Sequence record: OL615011 | Source: Shigella phage vB_SboS_Gloob | Direction: 5' to 3' (one strand) | DNA: 64,000 nt | Part shown: piece after piece, positions 8,552-56,329 of the stretch | How the letters are laid out: each line of letters opens with the position of its first letter | Numbering within the stretch: position 1 is the stretch's first letter | Position numbers and translations under genes: made by a program | The notes under the pieces: generated by a model | What the model was told of the DNA's origin: nothing | The model's input: the letters and a program-made list of their open reading frames with translations, nothing else | Databases searched by the model: none

Positions 8552-10465
8552 ATGTCTGATAAAATTGATATTGAACGCAAGTACAAGAAGCTCACGCACG
8601 TCGAGCATATCCTCCTTCGCCCAGAGCGTCATCTGGGCAGCATCCGTTCGTCTGTTGGTACGGTGTGGGTGTACGACCCAACCAAAGACCAAGTCATTTT
8701 CCGTGACAACTTTGAGTACTCCCCCGCCCTGATCAAACAGTTTGATGAAATCATCACCAACTGTGTTGACCACAGCAAGACGCCTGAGGGTAAATCCCTG
8801 ACGGAAATCACTGTCACGGTTTCCCCGATGAACGGTCAAATCATCGTTGCCGACAACGGGGGTATCCCTGTTGTGAAGCACGGTGTTACCAACGAGTGGT
8901 TGCCTGAGATGCTCTTCGGCTCCCTGTATGCAGGCAGCAACTTCAACGACGAAGACGAAGAGTACAACAACCAGAAGTCTGGTGGGCAGAATGGCGAAGG
9001 GGCTTCGCTCGTCAACGTGTTCTCAAAGTGGTTCCGTGTTGCTACCAGTGATGGCAAGAAGTCTTATGCCCAGCTGTTTGAAGACAACATGAGCAAGAAG
9101 TCTAATCCGGTCATCAGCAATACGCCGAAAGAGTTCGGCACCACCATCGCCTGGATTCCTGACTATGCTCGCCTGGGTGTCAAAGGGCTTGACCAGAACA
9201 ACCTGCTGATGATCTATCGCCGCGCGTTTGAAGTGGCTGCGTGTAACCCGCGCCTGAAGGTTGTGCTGAACGGGAAGCAAATCCGGATTGACCGCTTTGG
9301 TCACTTCGTTGATTACTTCCATGCTGGTTCCGCTGTTGATGAATCTGGTGAATGGTCGGTTGCTGTAGCCCCTTCATCCGGTACGTTCATGCACGCATCA
9401 TACGTGAACTCTATTGCCACCCACATCGGTGGTCCTCACGTTGATTATGTCGCCGACCAGATCGTGGCTGCGATTCGTCCTCAGCTGGTGAAGAAGTTCA
9501 AGACCGAGCTGAAACCTGCCATGATCAAGAACCACATGTCCTTGTTCATCGCCGCCGACATCAACAACCCGCGCTTTGACAGCCAGACCAAGGAGCGCAT
9601 GACCACTCCTGTAAGCCAGTTCGGTACGTCGTACAAACCGAGTGACAAACTCATCCGCAAGGCGCTTGAGTTCGTTATGGCTGGTCTGAGCAAAGAACTG
9701 GCTTCCCTGCGCAATGAGCAGGATGATGCTGAGTTTGAAAAGGCCAAGAAGGATATCAGCAAGCGGGATTATCGTGAGATTGAGAAGTATTACCCGGCGA
9801 CCGCCCGTGGTGACCGCAGCGGTTGCTCCCTGTTGCTGACAGAGGGTGATAGCGCCTCCAATCCTATCCTGAACGCCCGTGACACCAAAAAGATCGGATT
9901 GTTCCCGCTTCGTGGTAAGTTCATCAACTGCCTGAACGCCCCGCGCACAAAGGTGATGAACAATGAAGAGTTCAAGAACCTGTGTACGATTCACGGCGGC
10001 GCAGTGCCCGGTCAGCCACTTGACATCAGCCGCTACCCACAGACTGTTGTGGCTACCGATGCGGACGATGACGGCATTCACATCCGTGGGTTGTTGATCA
10101 CCCTGTATTGCACCTACTGGCCGGAGTACGTCCGTCAGGGCAGGCTGAAGCTCCTGCGCACCCCTTACATGCGTGTATGGTGTGGTAAGGTGATGCATGA
10201 GTTCATGAACAACGCCGAGTATGAGGAGTTCCTGAAGACGCCTGATGCCAAGAAGATCACGAAGAAGAAATATCTGAAAGGTCTTGGCGGTAACAGCACT
10301 GAAGACTTCAAACGTATTCTAAACAACCTGGATGCGTATACTACGACGGTCACGCTGGACGATGGCTACCAACAGTCACTGAAGAATGGCTTCGGTGATG
10401 AGGCCGCCGATTACCGCAAAACCTGGTTTAGCGATGTTTGCCTGTTTGAAACTGAGGATGAATAA
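8552..10465 (+). CDS. type II DNA topoisomerase large subunit (GyrB-like; ATPase plus TOPRIM fused, T4 gp39+gp60 equivalent)
   Basis: GHKL ATPase motifs (ITNCVDHS, DNGGIPV) and TOPRIM motif (LLLTEGDSA, DADDDGIHI) in one 637-aa ORF. Confidence 0.85.
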   Translation: MSDKIDIERKYKKLTHVEHILLRPERHLGSIRSSVGTVWVYDPTKDQVIFRDNFEYSPALIKQFDEIITNCVDHSKTPEGKSLTEITVTVSPMNGQIIVADNGGIPVVKHGVTNEWLPEMLFGSLYAGSNFNDEDEEYNNQKSGGQNGEGASLVNVFSKWFRVATSDGKKSYAQLFEDNMSKKSNPVISNTPKEFGTTIAWIPDYARLGVKGLDQNNLLMIYRRAFEVAACNPRLKVVLNGKQIRIDRFGHFVDYFHAGSAVDESGEWSVAVAPSSGTFMHASYVNSIATHIGGPHVDYVADQIVAAIRPQLVKKFKTELKPAMIKNHMSLFIAADINNPRFDSQTKERMTTPVSQFGTSYKPSDKLIRKALEFVMAGLSKELASLRNEQDDAEFEKAKKDISKRDYREIEKYYPATARGDRSGCSLLLTEGDSASNPILNARDTKKIGLFPLRGKFINCLNAPRTKVMNNEEFKNLCTIHGGAVPGQPLDISRYPQTVVATDADDDGIHIRGLLITLYCTYWPEYVRQGRLKLLRTPYMRVWCGKVMHEFMNNAEYEEFLKTPDAKKITKKKYLKGLGGNSTEDFKRILNNLDAYTTTVTLDDGYQQSLKNGFGDEAADYRKTWFSDVCLFETEDE

Positions 10466-20816: not shown

Positions 20817-21371
20817 ATGAAATATTTTGAGAAGTTTCCCCTTGTTTGGCATCAATTGCAAGATGTCCAAGAGAATGATCAGGTGCTGTTACAGAACTTA
20901 ACGCGCCGGGTAATGATCTTACAGAAAATTAAGGACATCGAAGGGCTTCTCCTGCCGTATACGATCCAAGAGGGGGAAACCCCAAGGTCTTTCGCAGAAC
21001 GCGTTTACGGATCCTTCGAGTTGTTTTGGATACCTTGCCTGATAAACGGCATCATGGACATCAATAAAGACTGGCCGAAACCGGAACGTCGTATTGTTGA
21101 AGAACTGACTACAGACTATGGCATCGATGGTATGTGGGATACAGCCTATTATGTCGACCAGTTCAACAATGTGACTGACGCCCGTGCGATCAAATTTGCA
21201 TATAACCTGGACCTGGATGAGCCGTCCATAATTGCTAACTATGGTCTGACGGCAGTTTCATATCATGATGACGCAATCAGTAAGAACGAAGCCAAACGGA
21301 ACATCCAAGTACTCGACCCAGATTATGTGTCTTCGTTTGTCAATCAGCTGGAGCAGGAGTTGGCGAAATGA
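20817..21371 (+). CDS. putative baseplate/tail protein
   Basis: position within tail block; 184 aa. Confidence 0.5.
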   Translation: MKYFEKFPLVWHQLQDVQENDQVLLQNLTRRVMILQKIKDIEGLLLPYTIQEGETPRSFAERVYGSFELFWIPCLINGIMDINKDWPKPERRIVEELTTDYGIDGMWDTAYYVDQFNNVTDARAIKFAYNLDLDEPSIIANYGLTAVSYHDDAISKNEAKRNIQVLDPDYVSSFVNQLEQELAK

Positions 21372-22756
21372 TCGAAAACAGAGAGACCCAAGACGGTATT
21401 GTAACACCGTCAACAACATTTGACCTGAAGTATATGGCGATCCTCCCTCATACACCCCAGGGCGGAACACCAACGCCATATGACCTGACGGCGTTGTTTG
21501 AGGAGTTCAACGTCTTCCAGGATCTGGGTCTTGAAGGGAAGTCATCTCCATCGCTTACAGCCAATGTCTTGATAAAAGAGGGGTGGGACATTCTGGACAC
21601 AATGCCTATCTTGGGTGGTGAAGAAGTTGTGGTGTCATTCAAGAGTCCGGCGGCCTCGGATTACACAACCCTTTCTCTGCGCGTGGCTCGGGTAGGGCGC
21701 GTGGCCGATGAGTCCAACAGCTCGTCCAAGAAAGCATTCTGGTTGCACATGGTGACTACCGATGCCTACAAGGACAGCATGATCCGCTGCTCCCTCGGTC
21801 TTGACGGTTCGTACTCTGACATGGCAAAGGTAATCTTCAATCAGCTGGAGTCGCGCACCAAGTTCGAAGACATCGACCCGTCATATGGCATTCAAGAGCG
21901 ATTCGCCACCCCGCTCTGGCCTGTGCTGCGATCTATTGATTATATGGCGAGCCGTTCTTATGACGAATTGTTCATGCCATTCGTTTTCTATGAAGACTTC
22001 AATGGCTATCACTTCAAGAGCCTGACGACGTTGTTCAACCAGGGTAGCCAGTCATTGACGGCAGAAGAGAAGCAGGAACTGGCTCAGCAGAACAAGTTAT
22101 TCCGTGATCCTCAGGACGCGCCGCTCATGCAGGATAACAACTTCAACTCTGAGCGTTTCATGCGCACTATCATTAAGGCAGAGAAGAAGCTGGCGCGTGA
22201 CCAGTTCATGGCAAACTACCGTGATGTCCTAGCGGTGAATGAGCGCGTCTACGACTTTGAGACCAAGACAGTCACCCCAACACAGCGCATCTACACTGAG
22301 TGGTTTGCAGAGACGGCTCACCTTGACCCATTCCCGATGTTCTCAGATGAATTCGATCGTCAGAACGTCCGTTATATTGAAGCACAGCCAGACGGCGCGG
22401 AGCAGATTGATTATGCTCGTCGTGTTATCAACTTCAGTCTTGCCAGTACTGTGATGCGCGTGTTGCTCGTTGGTGATAACCGCCTGAACGTCGGCCAGGT
22501 ATTCTACATCGAAGACCAATCCAACCGTCCTAAGAAGAACGAAAACCTGGCAGAGTTAAGTAAGCTATCGACAGGCCACTATATCGTGACCAAAGTACGT
22601 CACAAGATTTCCCGCCTGACCAAAGATTATCAGTGCATCGCTGAGATTGCCAAGGACAGTTTGCTGGAGCAGGTGCTTCCACCTCAGACCAATCAGACAA
22701 CTGCTTCCACCACTACTCCTCAGGCGATTGAGAAAGGCCAAGCACAGAAGGTTTAA
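21368..22756 (+). CDS. putative baseplate hub/tail protein
   Basis: 462-aa ORF immediately upstream of tape-measure-like gene; start overlaps upstream stop. Confidence 0.5.
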   Translation: MIENRETQDGIVTPSTTFDLKYMAILPHTPQGGTPTPYDLTALFEEFNVFQDLGLEGKSSPSLTANVLIKEGWDILDTMPILGGEEVVVSFKSPAASDYTTLSLRVARVGRVADESNSSSKKAFWLHMVTTDAYKDSMIRCSLGLDGSYSDMAKVIFNQLESRTKFEDIDPSYGIQERFATPLWPVLRSIDYMASRSYDELFMPFVFYEDFNGYHFKSLTTLFNQGSQSLTAEEKQELAQQNKLFRDPQDAPLMQDNNFNSERFMRTIIKAEKKLARDQFMANYRDVLAVNERVYDFETKTVTPTQRIYTEWFAETAHLDPFPMFSDEFDRQNVRYIEAQPDGAEQIDYARRVINFSLASTVMRVLLVGDNRLNVGQVFYIEDQSNRPKKNENLAELSKLSTGHYIVTKVRHKISRLTKDYQCIAEIAKDSLLEQVLPPQTNQTTASTTTPQAIEKGQAQKV

Positions 22757-27705: not shown

Positions 27706-27912
27706 TTATTGGCGGGTGCGGGATCTTGCCTGGCTGATAATGAGGTCAACATGCGGAAGTCGGTCCAATTCCCTTCGGCGCTTGCGTTCCTTACGCCATT
27801 CATGGAATTTTTCGTCTAACATTTCTGTGTTGATGATCGTTGCAATGATGCCAAATGCTCCAACAAAGGTCAAGATCATTTTGATCGAGTCCATCATGAA
27901 CCCTCCGCCCAA
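27706..27912 (-). CDS. small single-TM protein
   Basis: TM helix ILTFVGAFGIIATIINT followed by basic tail. Confidence 0.45.
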   Translation of the reverse strand: MGGGFMMDSIKMILTFVGAFGIIATIINTEMLDEKFHEWRKERKRRRELDRLPHVDLIISQARSRTRQ

Positions 27913-28427
27913 ACAAAGCCGTATTTGTTCAGTAGATCCACAGTTTCACCACGGGCGCGAGCCACGATAGATTCCACTGATTCTTCCACCTCGAGCGGCG
28001 GGCAACCAGCCTTTTCATATGTGTTAAGCAAGAGAGCAAGTTCTTTTACGAACCCTCTTTGTTCCTCTCTTCCAAAGAACCACATCCGCAGATCGTCACG
28101 TTCCCCATGCTTGTTCAGATAGAACATATTCGCGCACACGTAATCGTTTTTCTGAACAACGCCATTTATCTCCGGCCAATGCAACCCAGTCATCGCATAA
28201 TTGAAGAATTCCGAAGGGGTGACTTCGTCCGACACATAATACAAACGGAAGTCACCGCTGGGACCATGTTTGCAAATTCTATCCAGCATTATTTTGTGGA
28301 TGTCAACACGGTCTCGCGTCAAGACTTCCCGTTTCTCTAGTCGACCTCTCAGCCAAGCACTACCAATACACAAAAGAACGAAAGCAGTAGCACCAGTGAG
28401 TATGCCGAAAGAATCAAGATTGATCAT
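27894..28427 (-). CDS. N-terminally membrane-anchored protein
   Basis: TM helix FGILTGATAFVLLCIGSAWL then about 150-aa soluble domain. Confidence 0.5.
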   Translation of the reverse strand: MINLDSFGILTGATAFVLLCIGSAWLRGRLEKREVLTRDRVDIHKIMLDRICKHGPSGDFRLYYVSDEVTPSEFFNYAMTGLHWPEINGVVQKNDYVCANMFYLNKHGERDDLRMWFFGREEQRGFVKELALLLNTYEKAGCPPLEVEESVESIVARARGETVDLLNKYGFVWAEGS

Positions 28428-28469
28428 AAGATCCCCCGAAGTGATAGAGGGGCATAAGCCCCTCCGATG

Positions 28470-29078
28470 TTATTTGCTCAGGCTGGCGAGGTAGTTGTCG
28501 GCTTCGATAGACGACGGGCTGTTGGCGGAGTAGCTCGAATCAGCGATTTCGGTTTCGCGCAGGATGGCATCGATATCGATGGTGGTCATGCCAGCGGCAT
28601 AATCGATATCTTCAGGGAGCACCAGACCCAGGTCGTTCGTCTCTTTTTGAACACGAACCAGCTCGAGGTTGGACTTCACTTCGTCCAGTTTGTCACCCAG
28701 CTGGATGATCGCACCGTTCAGTTTGTCGCTGCTTGCTTCTATGTCCTTCACCTGAGCCAACAGGGCTTCGCCAATACGACGGCGATGCAGGACAATCAGG
28801 GCGTCGGCGCGGGTTGGTGTGACACCGCGAGCGATGGCGTCCTTCAGTACTTCTTCGCGCTTGGCAGCTTCACCCAGGTTCTGTTCTGCGGTCTTCTTCA
28901 GCTTGACGCCGTTGCGAACGTTGGCGACACGGGCTTCTTCCAGGCGGCGGATTTCATCAGACAGCTTACGGGCAGCCAGGTTCAGGCGCTTTTCGGTGCC
29001 GGTCAGTTTATCCAGACCCGTGGTGACGTTGGCTTCAACAGTGGTGAAGATGCGTTTCAGTAAGTTTTTCAGCGACAT
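28470..29078 (-). CDS. PspA/IM30-like coiled-coil protein (putative)
   Basis: N-terminal amphipathic segment MSLKNLLKRIFTTVEANVTTGLDKL resembles PspA N-terminus; long heptad-like coiled coil. Confidence 0.5.
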   Translation of the reverse strand: MSLKNLLKRIFTTVEANVTTGLDKLTGTEKRLNLAARKLSDEIRRLEEARVANVRNGVKLKKTAEQNLGEAAKREEVLKDAIARGVTPTRADALIVLHRRRIGEALLAQVKDIEASSDKLNGAIIQLGDKLDEVKSNLELVRVQKETNDLGLVLPEDIDYAAGMTTIDIDAILRETEIADSSYSANSPSSIEADNYLASLSK

Positions 29079-29093
29079 TAGTGTGATCCTCAG

Positions 29094-46216: not shown

Positions 46217-47023
46217 ATGAATTTGCCATCATTGCCCAGAACAGAAAAGACATATAAAAGCGACTTTTGGCCTACTGTGATCAAATATCGCGCCTTTACT
46301 GCGGGGCAACAAACTTTATTACTTCAGGTGTCAGATCCGCAAACGCCGATTGAAGAACGCGCGGCCATGATGGAGAGCCTCTTCAGCGAGTGTGTAAATG
46401 CAGGTGCGCCTTTCAGCAAACTGCCAATCGGTGTTGTTGAGGAAGTGTTCATCCGTATGCGCATGATCGCCATCGGCGAATTGATGAAGATTCGCTACAA
46501 GTGCAATAATCAGGTTGAAGAAACGATCGATCTAGGGGATGGTCAAGAAAAGCGCCAGATGGTTCCCTGTGAGCAGGAACTGACTCTACCTATCCCGCTG
46601 AACAATGTAAAATGCATTGCTCAGGACGGCTTCCAGGAGACGTTTGACCTGCCGGGTGGCTATCACCTCAAGATGCGCCAACCTTCCTTCTCGGACGCTA
46701 CGGCGCTGTCTGATGCTGCAAGTGTTGAGATGATGCTGGCCACCTTTATCGACTGCCTGTACGATGATGACGGTCAGGTGTGGAAGGTTGAGAATCCTGA
46801 AGAAATCGGGATCACTCCGGAAGAGGCTACCGAGCGCCGCCGTGTGAAAGAAGCATTTGTTGAGTGGGTGAAGGATAACATCGAATCAGATGTCATCGAC
46901 AGCATTACGAAGAACTTCTTCCACAAAATACCGCGCATCCACTACAAGAGTTCAATCAAGTGTCCGAAGTGTGGTAAGGAACACAAGATCGAATTCAATA
47001 GCATTAATGAAATTTTCATCTAA
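46217..47023 (+). CDS. hypothetical protein with C-terminal zinc ribbon (possible baseplate assembly protein by position)
   Basis: ATG 46217 inside track ORF; C-terminal CPKCGKEH; terminator downstream. Confidence 0.55.
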   Translation: MNLPSLPRTEKTYKSDFWPTVIKYRAFTAGQQTLLLQVSDPQTPIEERAAMMESLFSECVNAGAPFSKLPIGVVEEVFIRMRMIAIGELMKIRYKCNNQVEETIDLGDGQEKRQMVPCEQELTLPIPLNNVKCIAQDGFQETFDLPGGYHLKMRQPSFSDATALSDAASVEMMLATFIDCLYDDDGQVWKVENPEEIGITPEEATERRRVKEAFVEWVKDNIESDVIDSITKNFFHKIPRIHYKSSIKCPKCGKEHKIEFNSINEIFI

Positions 47024-47171
47024 TGTTTGAAACTGATTTACTATCCTACTTCGTGATGTGTGATGAATTGAAGTTACACGGCTATAGCATATTTGAAATC
47101 AACGAGTCGATGCCGTGGCATCTTGACTTGTTAACCGAAGCCCTCAAGGTCAGGTTGTCTAAGAAACAGTA

Positions 47172-47195
47172 ATCCCGCTTCGGCGGGATTTTTAT
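47172..47195 (+). terminator. rho-independent terminator
   Basis: atcccgcttcggcgggat hairpin (ttcg loop) then TTTTTATT. Confidence 0.65.
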
Positions 47196-47533
47196 TGGCT
47201 TAACTGTAAAACAGGTTAACGCGTGCTCTCTTTACCTGAAATTGTTATAATGGGCCTGTTCCTGAGTCATTTGTTGGGGATCGTCTATTTTGAATCAGAT
47301 TGTCAGTAAAATACCATTTTTCAAGGAGTGTTCTGAGGTGTACAGTTATTGCCTCGCTCTTATGCCTCCATGGCATTGGAATGGTGCTGCCTGCATAAGG
47401 CGGTGTGATGAGCGAAGCGAATAGGATCGAATAACAAATAAAATGAACGGAAGCAGAGCTTCCTATAGTATATAAGGCAAAATCCGCTGCGCATAAATAC
47501 CTTCAAATCCTTGTTTGACAACCGGAATTCACT

Positions 47534-49141
47534 ATGTTAGACAATATGAGATGGTTTTATGGCACCGTTGAAGATGTCAACGATCCAGACCAAAACGGGC
47601 GCGTCGCCGTCCGCATCTATGGCGTCCACACTGATGACACCGTCCTCCTGCCTACGGATAAACTCCCATGGGCGAAGGTACTGATGCCTGCTTCAAACGC
47701 CTCCTCTGCTGGTTTAGGTTGGTCTCCAACGGGTATCATTCCCGGCACTGAGGTTATGGGGTTCGCCCTTGACGAAGCATACCAGAACCTGCGTATCACT
47801 TGGACTTGGCCTGGGGCAAATCCCACTGATGGGGCAGACACGAATCCACTGGCTCTCGGACAGGTCGTTCAATCGGTAGAACGTCAGGCGTACAACGCCG
47901 TCACTGACGTTCCTGTGAAACAAGAAGACGAACCACAACCAGATCCACAACCACCTGTTGGTGGGTATGATCCTGAAAAATGGATGACCATCGCTCGTGG
48001 TGAGCTGGGTGTCAAGGAGTACGCCGGAAAGTTCAACAACAACCCGCGCATTATAGAATATCACAAGACAACCTCCCTTGGTGCTTCTGAAGATGAAGTG
48101 TCGTGGTGTGCGGCGTTCGTGGGCTGGGTTATGTTGCAGGCTGGATACACGTCTACGCGCTCCGCTCTTGCCCGATCTTACCTTACATGGGGTAGTGCAC
48201 TGTCAGCACCACAATATGGTGCTATCGTAGTCTTCCGGCGCGGTAACAACCCTACATTTGGACACGTGGCGTTTGTACAGAAGTTCGATGCAAACTATGT
48301 CTGGTGTATCGGTGGCAACCAATCCGATTCAGTGAAGGTCAGCCGCTTCAGCCGTTCGTCAGTCCTGGGCTACCGCTGGCCTGGTCCTGCTAACACAGCC
48401 ACAGCCGCGCCTGCGCAGCAGAATGGTAAATGGTCAGAACCTATCCCAGATCGTACTCCAAAGGAACAACCGACTCCGGCTCCTACAGGGCGCGTCCAGG
48501 ATATTGATAACACGGGCGAAACTATGGTTCCGGCAGCGGGTGGCTCCAAGTACCCGTACAACAACGTCATGGCGTCCCGAGCAGGTCACATAATGGAGGT
48601 GGACGACACTCCTGGTGGTGAGCGTCTTCATTGGATGCACATGTCCGGCTCCTACAAACAGATGCTCCCGAACGGCGACGTCGTCAACAAGTCAGTGAAG
48701 GATCATTATGACCTGACCATGTTTGACAAGCGCTATTATGTCGGCGGGGACCACAACCTGACGGTCAAAGGAACTGAAGTTCAGCGCAAGACTGGTGAGG
48801 TCTATCACCTTCACTCCAACAACTACTCAAATGTGGTTGCTGGTACAGCGCTTATGAAGTTCAGCAACCTAGCAGAGATCCAAGCCCAGAATATCCTGCG
48901 CATCATCTGTGAGACTCTGGAAGTTGGTGGAACTCTCAAGGTGCCGAAGATCCTGGCCACTGAGATCATCGCCGACAAACTGTCGGTCGCTCAGACGATT
49001 GATGGCAACATCAAATATGCCGAGGGTGCAGGTCGTGCTTCTTCTCTGTCTGGTGCTACCCCTGCAACCCCATCGGGTCCAGGCGAGATAGATATTAAGG
49101 CAGAATTAAAAGACAATGGTGGTAATTTCGGCACCGAGTAA
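47534..49141 (+). CDS. baseplate central spike protein (gp5-like) with CHAP peptidase domain
   Basis: N-terminal OB-like region, central Cys/His CHAP-like motifs (SWCAAFVGWV ... GHVAFV), C-terminal beta-helix-like repeat region. Confidence 0.75.
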   Translation: MLDNMRWFYGTVEDVNDPDQNGRVAVRIYGVHTDDTVLLPTDKLPWAKVLMPASNASSAGLGWSPTGIIPGTEVMGFALDEAYQNLRITWTWPGANPTDGADTNPLALGQVVQSVERQAYNAVTDVPVKQEDEPQPDPQPPVGGYDPEKWMTIARGELGVKEYAGKFNNNPRIIEYHKTTSLGASEDEVSWCAAFVGWVMLQAGYTSTRSALARSYLTWGSALSAPQYGAIVVFRRGNNPTFGHVAFVQKFDANYVWCIGGNQSDSVKVSRFSRSSVLGYRWPGPANTATAAPAQQNGKWSEPIPDRTPKEQPTPAPTGRVQDIDNTGETMVPAAGGSKYPYNNVMASRAGHIMEVDDTPGGERLHWMHMSGSYKQMLPNGDVVNKSVKDHYDLTMFDKRYYVGGDHNLTVKGTEVQRKTGEVYHLHSNNYSNVVAGTALMKFSNLAEIQAQNILRIICETLEVGGTLKVPKILATEIIADKLSVAQTIDGNIKYAEGAGRASSLSGATPATPSGPGEIDIKAELKDNGGNFGTE

Positions 49142-49219: not shown

Positions 49220-49600
49220 ATGAAAGAGTACAAAGATGTCGATCTGAAGTTCGGCATGCACCCGGTGACCAAAGATGTCACCATGAAATCAGGCGTATAC
49301 GCTGTCTTGCAATCTGTGCGGAATATCGTCATGTCTTCAGTCGGGGACTGGCCCACTTATCCTGGGATCGGTGCAGGGTTGTATAATCTCCTTGGAGAGA
49401 ACACCACCCCAACGATTCAGGTAGATGTGAAGAACAAAGTTGAAGATGCTATTGCTCTGTATGAACCGCGAGCCGAGGTAGAAGAAGTCACGGTGAGTCT
49501 GTCAGAGGATTACCATTCTCTGGGCGTGACCATCACATTCTATGTGGTCAACAATCCAGATCCAATAACAGACACCGTGTGGTTGAAAAGGACGAATTAG
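49220..49600 (+). CDS. gp25-like baseplate wedge protein (GPW/gp25 family)
   Basis: resembles T4 gp25 as recalled (SVGDWPTYPGIGAGLYNLLGENTTP; YEPRAEVEEV; VVNNPDPIT). Confidence 0.75.
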   Translation: MKEYKDVDLKFGMHPVTKDVTMKSGVYAVLQSVRNIVMSSVGDWPTYPGIGAGLYNLLGENTTPTIQVDVKNKVEDAIALYEPRAEVEEVTVSLSEDYHSLGVTITFYVVNNPDPITDTVWLKRTN

Positions 49601-50414: not shown

Positions 50415-50490
50415 GATATAGTTCCCGCTTTCAATTTGTGGCGAATGCCAATGAATTACTGGGAAGTATAGGGGAGGGCGTTTCAAAAGT

Positions 50491-50513
50491 AAAGCCCCTC
50501 ATTGAGGGGCTTT
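50491..50513 (-). terminator. rho-independent terminator after glutaredoxin/nrd operon
   Basis: aaagcccctcattgaggggcttt hairpin; T-run on minus strand. Confidence 0.55.
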
Positions 50514-50519
50514 GGCTTG

Positions 50520-50744
50520 TCAGCGTTTGAGGCTGGCGGCGAGTCCACTAACGTCGGTCACGGTCTGGTCAGCGAGGACGATTACAGGCATCGACATGCG
50601 CTGTTTACCCGTCAACTTCTGAAGTTCTTCCAGCTGGTAGTCTTTGTCCAGCTTGAGGATCTTGTGTTCCAGCCCTTTCATCTTGCACAGATTTTCGGCT
50701 GTTACACACTGAGCGCAACCTTGTTTGGAATAGATCGTAATCAT
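50520..50744 (-). CDS. glutaredoxin/NrdH-like redoxin
   Basis: CAQC active-site motif in a 74-aa thioredoxin-fold-sized protein downstream of nrdB. Confidence 0.7.
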   Translation of the reverse strand: MITIYSKQGCAQCVTAENLCKMKGLEHKILKLDKDYQLEELQKLTGKQRMSMPVIVLADQTVTDVSGLAASLKR

Positions 50745-55534: not shown

Positions 55535-56329
55535 TTAACTGAAACTCTTGTATGCAGCAGCGAGCTTCGTGTCGTACTGGTTCTTGGCATACGCCGGACC
55601 ATTATAGCGCCGCGCAAACTCAGCCCAGTTCTTGTCCTTCAGAGCCTGCCAGAGCTTGGCGTCGGCCTTGATGAACTTCACGAATGCCATCAGATGGGCG
55701 CGTTCGCCTGTCAAGAAGTCATTGAACATCTCCTTGGCGTTGGCGTACCCACAGACCTGGCAGTTGAAGCCCATGATCTGGAAGAGGCCGTATGAAGCGC
55801 TCTCGTACGCACAATCCTCATCGATGTTGATGGCCGCATGAAGTCTATCCAACTCTGCATCGCCGCCCGTGTACCCGCCTGCCACTGGACTGACAAGGGT
55901 TGGATACATCTGACCAGCAGCATTCGCCCGAGCCTGCCCGAACTTCGCCATCATCTTCTTGTACATGATGTGACGCTCAAACAACGTCTTGATCTTACCA
56001 GACTTGGTGAAGCCAGTGCCACGGGATTCAACCTGATTGACTGCCTTCACAGAGGCGAGGTCAACCCCCAGCTGGTTGGCTGCATCGATAAGGTCAGCCT
56101 CAGTCAGGTGATCCTGATGGGCGTCTCCGGCGTTGCGAATAGCATAGGAGGTCTTTGGACCCACAATACCATCAATGACAAGCCCCGCACCCGCCTGAAC
56201 GGATTTGACAGCGTTCTCTGTTGCCTTACCAAAGATGCCGTCAGCGACGAGGGTGAAGCCGATTTTGTTGAGGCTCTGCTGAAGTGCCTTCACTTCAGTG
56301 CCACGGTTGCCAAGTTTTAGAATGGCCAT
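55535..56329 (-). CDS. endolysin: N-terminal peptidoglycan-binding domain plus C-terminal muramidase-like domain
   Basis: PG_binding_1-like repeat (GTEVKALQQSLNKIGF...DGIFGKATENAV...DGIVGPKTSYAI); GGAGG RBS. Confidence 0.7.
   Translation of the reverse strand: MAILKLGNRGTEVKALQQSLNKIGFTLVADGIFGKATENAVKSVQAGAGLVIDGIVGPKTSYAIRNAGDAHQDHLTEADLIDAANQLGVDLASVKAVNQVESRGTGFTKSGKIKTLFERHIMYKKMMAKFGQARANAAGQMYPTLVSPVAGGYTGGDAELDRLHAAINIDEDCAYESASYGLFQIMGFNCQVCGYANAKEMFNDFLTGERAHLMAFVKFIKADAKLWQALKDKNWAEFARRYNGPAYAKNQYDTKLAAAYKSFS

Follow-up and report, generated by a model that had tools for sequence, protein, structure and literature searches.

Which kind of enzyme does the central spike of a phage carry when its product is named a tail lysozyme? 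The question is raised by a gene in a stretch of 64,000 nucleotides (nt) from Shigella phage vB_SboS_Gloob (sequence record OL615011), which was analyzed as a whole and is called the window here. The gp5-type central spike gene occupies positions 47534..49141 (+) as an open reading frame (ORF) of 535 amino acids (aa) plus stop codon, and its product matches PHROG 430, 'baseplate hub subunit and tail lysozyme', over the full length (E-value 1e-155). A preliminary description, made from the sequence alone, had proposed that the centre of this protein is a CHAP-type peptidase rather than a lysozyme. According to our analysis, the protein is very probably the central cell-puncturing spike of an Ackermannviridae myovirus, a T4 gp5 orthologue in which a cysteine peptidase replaces the lysozyme. 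By its scaffold it is a gp5 orthologue, but it is not a 'tail lysozyme'; the peptidase takes the place that the lysozyme has in T4 gp5.

Family and fold of the central domain

The Cys and His motifs on which the peptidase proposal had been based are present, SWCAAFVGWV at residues 190-199 and GHVAFV at residues 243-248. They lie in a central domain of residues 144-287 (47963..48394, +), which hidden Markov model searches assign, above the curated cutoffs, to Pfam CHAP (PF05257; residues 187-262, E-value 8.6e-11, 42.6 bits versus a cutoff of 26) and to TIGR02594 of NCBIfam (residues 150-282, E-value 5e-38, 130.3 bits versus a cutoff of 70.55), i.e. to a CHAP/TIGR02594 cysteine peptidase of the NlpC/P60 superfamily. 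Four Pfam families match the spike protein at E<=1, namely Gp5_OB, CHAP and, weakly, DUF2272 and Phage_base_V; lysozyme or other glycosidase families are not among them, and the central domain in particular has no lysozyme-family match. The T4-type gp5 of phage RB14, used as a positive control, matches Gp5_OB, Phage_lysozyme (PF00959), Gp5_C and Gp5_trimer_C in the same Pfam library. Hence the lysozyme-negative scan of the window protein is informative.

The inherited annotation in most GenBank and RefSeq records, and nothing else, speaks for a lysozyme or another glycan-strand hydrolase in the central domain, as the name 'tail lysozyme' implies. The absence of a glycosidase match, the positive RB14 control and the papain-like fold described below refute this identity, and we give it practically no chance. 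Furthermore, the muramidase of the phage is encoded by a separate gene, an endolysin with PG_binding_1 and N-acetylmuramidase (PF11860) domains at 55535-56329 (-).

In papain-like NlpC/P60 and CHAP enzymes, the catalytic Cys typically stands at the start of a helix, the His on a strand, and a polar residue follows. The isolated central domain was modelled with an alignment of 100 sequences (mean predicted local distance difference test, pLDDT, of 90; predicted template modelling score of 0.87), and the model shows such an alpha+beta fold with Cys at the N-terminus of a helix and His on the sheet. The predicted nucleophile, Cys192 (codon 48107..48109, +), is the first residue of helix 192-202; the predicted general base, His244 (codon 48263..48265, +), is situated in strand 243-251; and the predicted third polar residue, Asn262 (codon 48317..48319, +), belongs to an invariant GGNQ motif just after strand 255-260. 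Conservation of these residues was examined in alignments of 44 and of 100 sequences, whose identity to the query goes down to 27-30% and among which are TIGR02594 proteins of bacteria with PG_binding_1, LysM or GH108 modules fused to them. Twelve positions are invariant: G159, W191, C192, A193, F195, G220, G229, H244, G260, G261, N262 and Q263.

The conservation of the individual segments, computed among 22 full-length homologues, is in agreement with these results. Conservation is highest in the enzyme domain, whose mean pairwise identity is 80% and in which 44% of the columns are invariant (57-70% and 21-30%, respectively, in the remaining segments); this argues for a selected, active enzyme. 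It is very improbable that the domain is a catalytically dead remnant that merely binds peptidoglycan or serves as a structural module of the spike. That a spike can function without the domain is indicated by Vibrio phage YC, whose gp5 has none; against a remnant, however, stand the invariance of Cys, His and Asn/Gln in 100 out of 100 sequences, the position of the domain as the most conserved part of the protein, and the use of the same family as a free-standing endolysin module and as a predicted type VI secretion system (T6SS) effector.

Among solved structures, the closest neighbours of the modelled domain are NlpC/P60 endopeptidases: Acd24020 (score 14.5), LytE (13.7), Trichomonas vaginalis NlpC1 (13.5), SagA (13.0), CwlO (12.4) and MepS (12.1-12.4). 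Classical CHAP domains follow with LysGH15 (10.5), PlyC (8.8) and the Gsp amidase (7.9). Tail-tip hydrolases are also found, i.e. the diffocin baseplate hub-hydrolase (12.8), the tail-tip lysin of Staphylococcus phage Andhra (8.2) and the phi812 hub protein (8.0), as are the T6SS effectors Tae3 (10.3) and Tse1 (8.8). At the level of sequence, neither the protein nor the 100-sequence profile retrieved a solved relative of the central domain from the PDB; the sole match on it is a C51 peptidase (E-value 0.28). Other PDB matches were set aside, as they come from the gp5 flanks or from the GH108 and PG_binding modules of the aligned bacterial proteins. Profile, model and conservation support the assignment of the central domain to the papain-like Cys/His peptidases of peptidoglycan, within the TIGR02594 subfamily of the CHAP/NlpC-P60 superfamily.

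Target bond

What is more challenging is the prediction of the scissile bond. Enzymes of the CHAP/NlpC-P60 superfamily act as stem-peptide endopeptidases, as cross-link (D,D) endopeptidases or as amidases between N-acetylmuramic acid (MurNAc) and L-Ala, and fold similarity does not fix specificity among them. In proposing peptide cross-links as the target, the preliminary description made a narrower claim than the evidence supports. As the nearest structural neighbours are for the most part D,L-endopeptidases with a cut between gamma-D-Glu and meso-diaminopimelic acid (mDAP), our best guess is that the enzyme may cut the gamma-D-Glu-mDAP bond of the stem peptide, with a roughly even chance of being right. 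An active domain with another target, either a D,D-endopeptidase that cuts cross-links (mDAP-D-Ala) or a MurNAc-L-Ala amidase, would be compatible with the same fold and is rather unlikely: the top neighbours are mostly D,L-endopeptidases by function or label (LytE, CwlO, a T. thermophilus D,L-endopeptidase and gamma-D-glutamyl-L-diamino acid endopeptidases), and gamma-D,L-glutamate specificity is cited in PMC3184105.

Domain anatomy of the spike protein

Homology to T4-type gp5 is confined to both ends of the protein, residues 3-94 and 339-435. At the N-terminus, residues 1-95 (47534..47818, +) form the gp5 OB-fold domain. The OB-like region that had been recognized earlier is borne out by a match of Pfam Gp5_OB (PF06714) at residues 35-97 (E-value 3.5e-13, 50.4 bits versus a cutoff of 25), by 42% identity of residues 3-94 to residues 6-102 of T4-type gp5 (BLASTP), by a confident, beta-rich model, and by Foldseek. 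Two linkers, both defined by composition and a pLDDT below 50, flank the peptidase: linker 1 (residues 96-143; 47819..47962, +) is rich in Pro, Val, Gln and Asp, and linker 2 (residues 288-336; 48395..48541, +) in Pro, Thr and Ala. In T4 gp5, the linker at the corresponding position contains the S351/A352 maturation site, and a maturation cleavage might occur in linker 2 too; no sequence similarity was found between linker 2 and the T4 linker.

The full-length AlphaFold model is confident for residues 1-95, which are beta-rich and OB-like, and for residues 144-287, but neither for the two Pro-rich linkers nor for the whole C-terminal part. For the latter, low confidence is to be expected, since it is a monomer model of an intertwined trimer on a shallow alignment. 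When the model was submitted to Foldseek, the whole chain retrieved gp5 of T4 and of Klebsiella phage KP1, the N-terminus IF1-type OB folds, and the centre NlpC/P60 and CHAP enzymes.

The C-terminal region consists of two parts. The proximal part, residues 337-451 (48542..48886, +), corresponds by homology to the first part of the T4 gp5 beta-helix: residues 338-451 align to residues 385-498 of T4 gp5 when a profile of 14 family members is used (E-value 7.5e-19), and residues 339-435 are 37% identical to T4-type gp5 (BLASTP). For the distal part, residues 452-535 (48887..49138, +), for which the model is not confident, we found no match in the PDB or Pfam and no relative outside the family; residues 441-535 are the least conserved segment (57% mean pairwise identity). 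The C-terminal repeat region described earlier therefore holds up only as homology to the proximal beta-helix, because an 8-residue repeat is not evident. In the autocorrelation, z at lag 8 is 1.0 for the window protein, with weak values of 2.7-2.9 at lag 24; T4-type gp5C gives 6.3, 6.2 and 5.5 at lags 8, 16 and 24. Neither Pfam Gp5_C (PF06715) nor Gp5_trimer_C (PF22178) matches the C-terminal part of the window protein; weak Gp5_trimer_C matches occur in two of the 14 relatives. Homologues of gp5.4 (PAAR) and gp5.1 were not detected in the window by tblastn, which is a weak test for them.

Some orthologous spikes, e.g. those of Serratia phage 3M and Erwinia phage phiEa2809, are 605-617 aa long. 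Their 70-80 additional residues, a Ser/Thr/Ala-rich stretch and a conserved terminal motif, follow the GGNF with which the window protein ends, and suggest an additional tip module.

The cassette and its distribution

The segment consisting of linker, peptidase and linker (residues 119-337; 47888..48544, +) is absent from the gp5 of Vibrio phage YC (NC_048709.1; Ackermannviridae, Campanilevirus). This protein has 354 aa and is encoded at 1501-2565 of the locus examined. Its alignment with the query covers residues 1-118 of the latter at 46% identity and residues 338-498 at 39%, separated by about 23 residues; Gp5_OB is present and CHAP absent, so that the OB domain is joined almost directly to the needle. 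Hence, one inter-domain slot exists in three states: it holds a lysozyme in T4-type gp5, a TIGR02594 peptidase in enterobacterial Ackermannviridae, and nothing in YC. Since YC does without the enzyme, the peptidase activity of the spike may be accessory rather than essential.

Outside the spike, the domain alone is found in 545 phage records, 263 of which have less than 60% identity. The free-standing TIGR02594 proteins that we checked are short and situated in non-structural contexts. Vibrio phage ICP1 gp207 (2252-2968 of the locus examined) combines PG_binding_1 with CHAP, and Pectobacterium phage PM1_012 (2489-2965 of the locus examined) is a short free-standing TIGR02594/CHAP protein. Phage genomes of about 43 kb also list the domain under 'baseplate hub subunit and tail lysozyme'. 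The free-standing proteins are probably endolysins mislabelled with this name, and the mislabelling looks like an annotation transfer from ViI-like gp5. In the literature, the TIGR02594 family is described as a predicted VgrG-linked T6SS effector (linked to VgrG4 in Stenotrophomonas maltophilia; PMC13055248) and as a putative endolysin (PMC5418858).

Several points weigh against a gp5-type spike with an active peptidase of this superfamily. The spike protein does not match NlpC/P60 sensu stricto (PF00877) in Pfam at E<=1; the enzyme is filed under the superfamily rather than PF00877, though its nearest solved folds are PF00877-type enzymes. A literature search found no enzymatic assay or structure of any orthologue. 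The C-terminal needle is not confidently modelled and has no canonical VxGxxxxx octapeptide repeats, and with YC the Ackermannviridae include a member that dispenses with the enzyme domain altogether. (The 'CHAP' matches in a review of the Ackermannviridae were discarded, as they stem from the word 'chaperone'.)

A broader evolutionary reading appears to us somewhat doubtful and is put forward tentatively. The peptidase would be an exchangeable cassette drawn from the pool from which endolysins and T6SS effectors also come, and dispensable in some Ackermannviridae; the protein would be the first gp5-type spike shown to cut gamma-D-Glu-mDAP; and its tip (residues 452-535) would be non-canonical, with neither octapeptide repeats nor an adjacent PAAR cap.

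Proposed mechanism

T4 gp5 (PDB 1K28 and later baseplate structures) is the basis for the analogy of a three-chain needle with a linker-borne enzyme. By this analogy, three copies of the protein would make up the needle that tips the tail tube. Their N-terminal OB domains would bind to a gp27-like hub, their C-terminal parts would wind around each other as a beta-helical needle, and around it the three enzyme domains would be arranged on the flexible Pro-rich linkers. Each would be a peptidase with the predicted triad Cys192, His244 and Asn262. Upon contraction of the sheath, the needle would cross the outer membrane and the peptidase domains would reach the murein, where they would cut peptide bonds of the peptidoglycan and not the glycan, so that the mesh is locally opened for the tail tube. 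As judged from the two sequences, the entry enzyme is predicted to cut peptide and the exit enzyme, the endolysin, glycan; the two are unrelated, unlike those of T4.

Relatives and neighbouring genes

The DNA of the spike gene is 97.6% identical to that of Salmonella phages SW16-7 and SP-9-14, 97.2% to SKML-39, and 95% to Shigella phage Ag3. The records of SW16-7 and SKML-39 are classified as Ackermannviridae, Aglimvirinae, genus Agtrevirus, and the window is an Agtrevirus-like (ViI-like) Ackermannviridae genome. According to tblastn, 278 phage records contain a protein that covers at least 80% of the spike query; the hosts in their names include Salmonella, Klebsiella, Dickeya, Escherichia and Shigella. 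The record of LIMEstone1 marks its gp5 orthologue as 'confirmed structural protein'.

The spike gene lies among baseplate genes. Upstream, a gp26-like baseplate hub subunit is encoded at 46217..47023 (+; Pfam T4_baseplate, E-value 9.6e-46; PHROG 150), which is annotated as T4-like gp26 in SW16-7 and LIMEstone1. Directly after it follows a 49-aa ORF at 47023..47172 (+), which is conserved in the family (PHROG 9633, E-value 3e-39) and annotated in relatives. Its match to PHROG 634, 'baseplate hub assembly catalyst' (gp51-like; E-value 4.4e-4), is weak; a gp51-like reading would echo the T4 gene order 26-51. The gp26-like unit ends with a strong hairpin resembling an intrinsic terminator (AATCCCGCTTCGGCGGGATT) plus T-run at 47171..47200 (+), where LIMEstone1 has an annotated terminator. 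Downstream of the spike gene, a gp25-like baseplate wedge subunit is encoded at 49220..49600 (+; Pfam GPW_gp25, E-value 6.6e-9; PHROGs 261 and 43).

Between the terminator-like hairpin and gene 5 there is a gap of 360 bp. It includes the T4-late-promoter-like sequence CATAAATA at 47492..47499 (+), 35 nt upstream of the start codon; the corresponding site of LIMEstone1 is labelled 'putative late promoter', and CATAAATA is invariant in five relatives that span genera. From this conserved promoter-like sequence, late expression of the spike gene is predicted. In addition, an extended -10-like sequence, TGTTATAAT, was noticed at about 47243-47251; it is largely kept in CBA120 as TGCTATAAC.

A candidate for the gp27-like hub partner is located at 21368..22756 (+). 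It matches PHROG 350 ('tail protein'), has no Pfam match at E<=0.1, and is 94% identical to ORF026 of LIMEstone1, annotated as 'putative baseplate hub subunit gp27; confirmed structural protein'. It is this record annotation that supports the gp27 identity; the hub partner is not recognizable by standard profiles.

Conserved block and variable segments

Within the 360-bp gap, a block of about 150 nt (approximately 47318-47473, +) is conserved across genera of the Ackermannviridae while its flanks diverge. Limestonevirus shares about 95% identity with it, Kuttervirus about 82% and Taipeivirus about 72-75%. The only small ORF in the block changes frame between this phage and CBA120 through two 1-nt indels that compensate each other; hence it is the nucleotide sequence that is conserved. 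In Klebsiella phage May, an ORF of 64 aa is annotated at this position. RNAalifold with five sequences proposes three hairpins, two of them with one compensatory pair each, a set too small to convince, and folding of the whole gap is no better than that of shuffled sequence (z = 0.26). Rfam, applied to the whole window and permissively to the gap, returned only look-alikes of terminator hairpins, and a search for tRNA genes found none. About 120 records show a second blastn 'place' for the block; a second copy was found neither in the window nor in LIMEstone1 positions 1-43000.

Elsewhere in the window, about 1.3 kb at 27749-29086 are absent from the closest relative, SW16-7. This segment has two ORFs, at 27894-28427 (-) and 28470-29078 (-); it encodes a 202-aa protein of the PspA/IM30 family (Pfam E-value 1.4e-9; PHROG 1203) and a 177-aa ORF for which no family match was found. 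A homing endonuclease gene of SKML-39 (8963-9763 of the locus examined) corresponds to window positions of about 50490-50520, between, on one side, the two small minus-strand ORFs that lie downstream of the gp25-like gene and, on the other, the glutaredoxin/nrdB genes, and is absent from the window and SW16-7. LIMEstone1 possesses several homing endonucleases (F-LimI to F-LimIV). Hence such endonuclease genes are variable insertions in the family.

Comparison with known systems

The replacement of the lysozyme is real, yet it was already published in 2011 for a near-identical phage. In CBA120, the 537-aa gp5 homologue orf092 misses the usual lysozyme; residues 150-282 are described as a putative CHAP domain belonging to TIGR02594 (NlpC/P60 superfamily), and residues 3-109 and 334-437 as homologous to T4 gp5; the orthologue of Vi01 was detected by virion proteomics (Kutter et al. 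2011, PMC3184105). Over the full length, CBA120 orf092 and the window protein share 87% identity. CBA120 orf092 and the Vi01 'Gp5-tail associated lysozyme' have the same three-part architecture, and domain boundaries and gene neighbourhood of CBA120 match those of the window. Nothing of substance differs, and the window gene is an Agtrevirus-type allele of the same gene. Hence the gain is small: the domain swap was described as early as 2011, the family is already named by the NCBI model, and the domain architecture of the spike is precomputed in public databases.

What follows from the peptidase concerns annotation and experiment. For about 280 records of Ackermannviridae, 'baseplate hub subunit and tail lysozyme' states the wrong chemistry, and the name has also spread to free-standing TIGR02594 lysins of unrelated phages. 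The enzyme is predicted to act on the murein of Enterobacteriaceae and could interest enzybiotic work. Furthermore, with its three states the slot provides a clean experiment of nature on the question whether infection requires wall hydrolases on the spike.

With T4 gp5 (1K28, 1WTH, 5IV5), the window spike shares the OB domain, an enzyme placed between OB domain and needle, the proximal needle and the role in the baseplate. It differs in its enzyme, a cysteine peptidase where T4 has a GH24 lysozyme, and in its C-terminal part, which shows neither the VxGxxxxx periodicity nor a Gp5_C or Gp5_trimer_C match and whose distal 84 residues are unrelated. A homologue of T4 gp5.4 (PAAR) is undetectable in the window. 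Finally, spike enzyme and endolysin are related to each other in T4 (PMC3184105), whereas those of this phage are not.

The free-standing TIGR02594 lysins ICP1 gp207, Pectobacterium phage PM1_012 and Pseudomonas phage ZC01_075 have the same catalytic domain, 34-42% identical to that of the spike; unlike the window protein, they are 158-238 aa long and possess neither a gp5 OB domain nor a needle. Cysteine peptidases at the tail tip or hub of contractile particles are known from diffocin CD1368 (8V3W), the phi812 hub protein (9EUF, 9EUM) and Andhra gp10 (8EJ5), all directed at Gram-positive targets. Their carriers are not of the gp5 type with OB domain and needle, and they face another wall chemistry on targets without an outer membrane. 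The TIGR02594/NlpC-P60 effectors of T6SS (the VgrG4-linked one of S. maltophilia, Tae3, Tse1) are separate cargo with an immunity partner, whereas the enzyme of the window spike is built into the spike itself.

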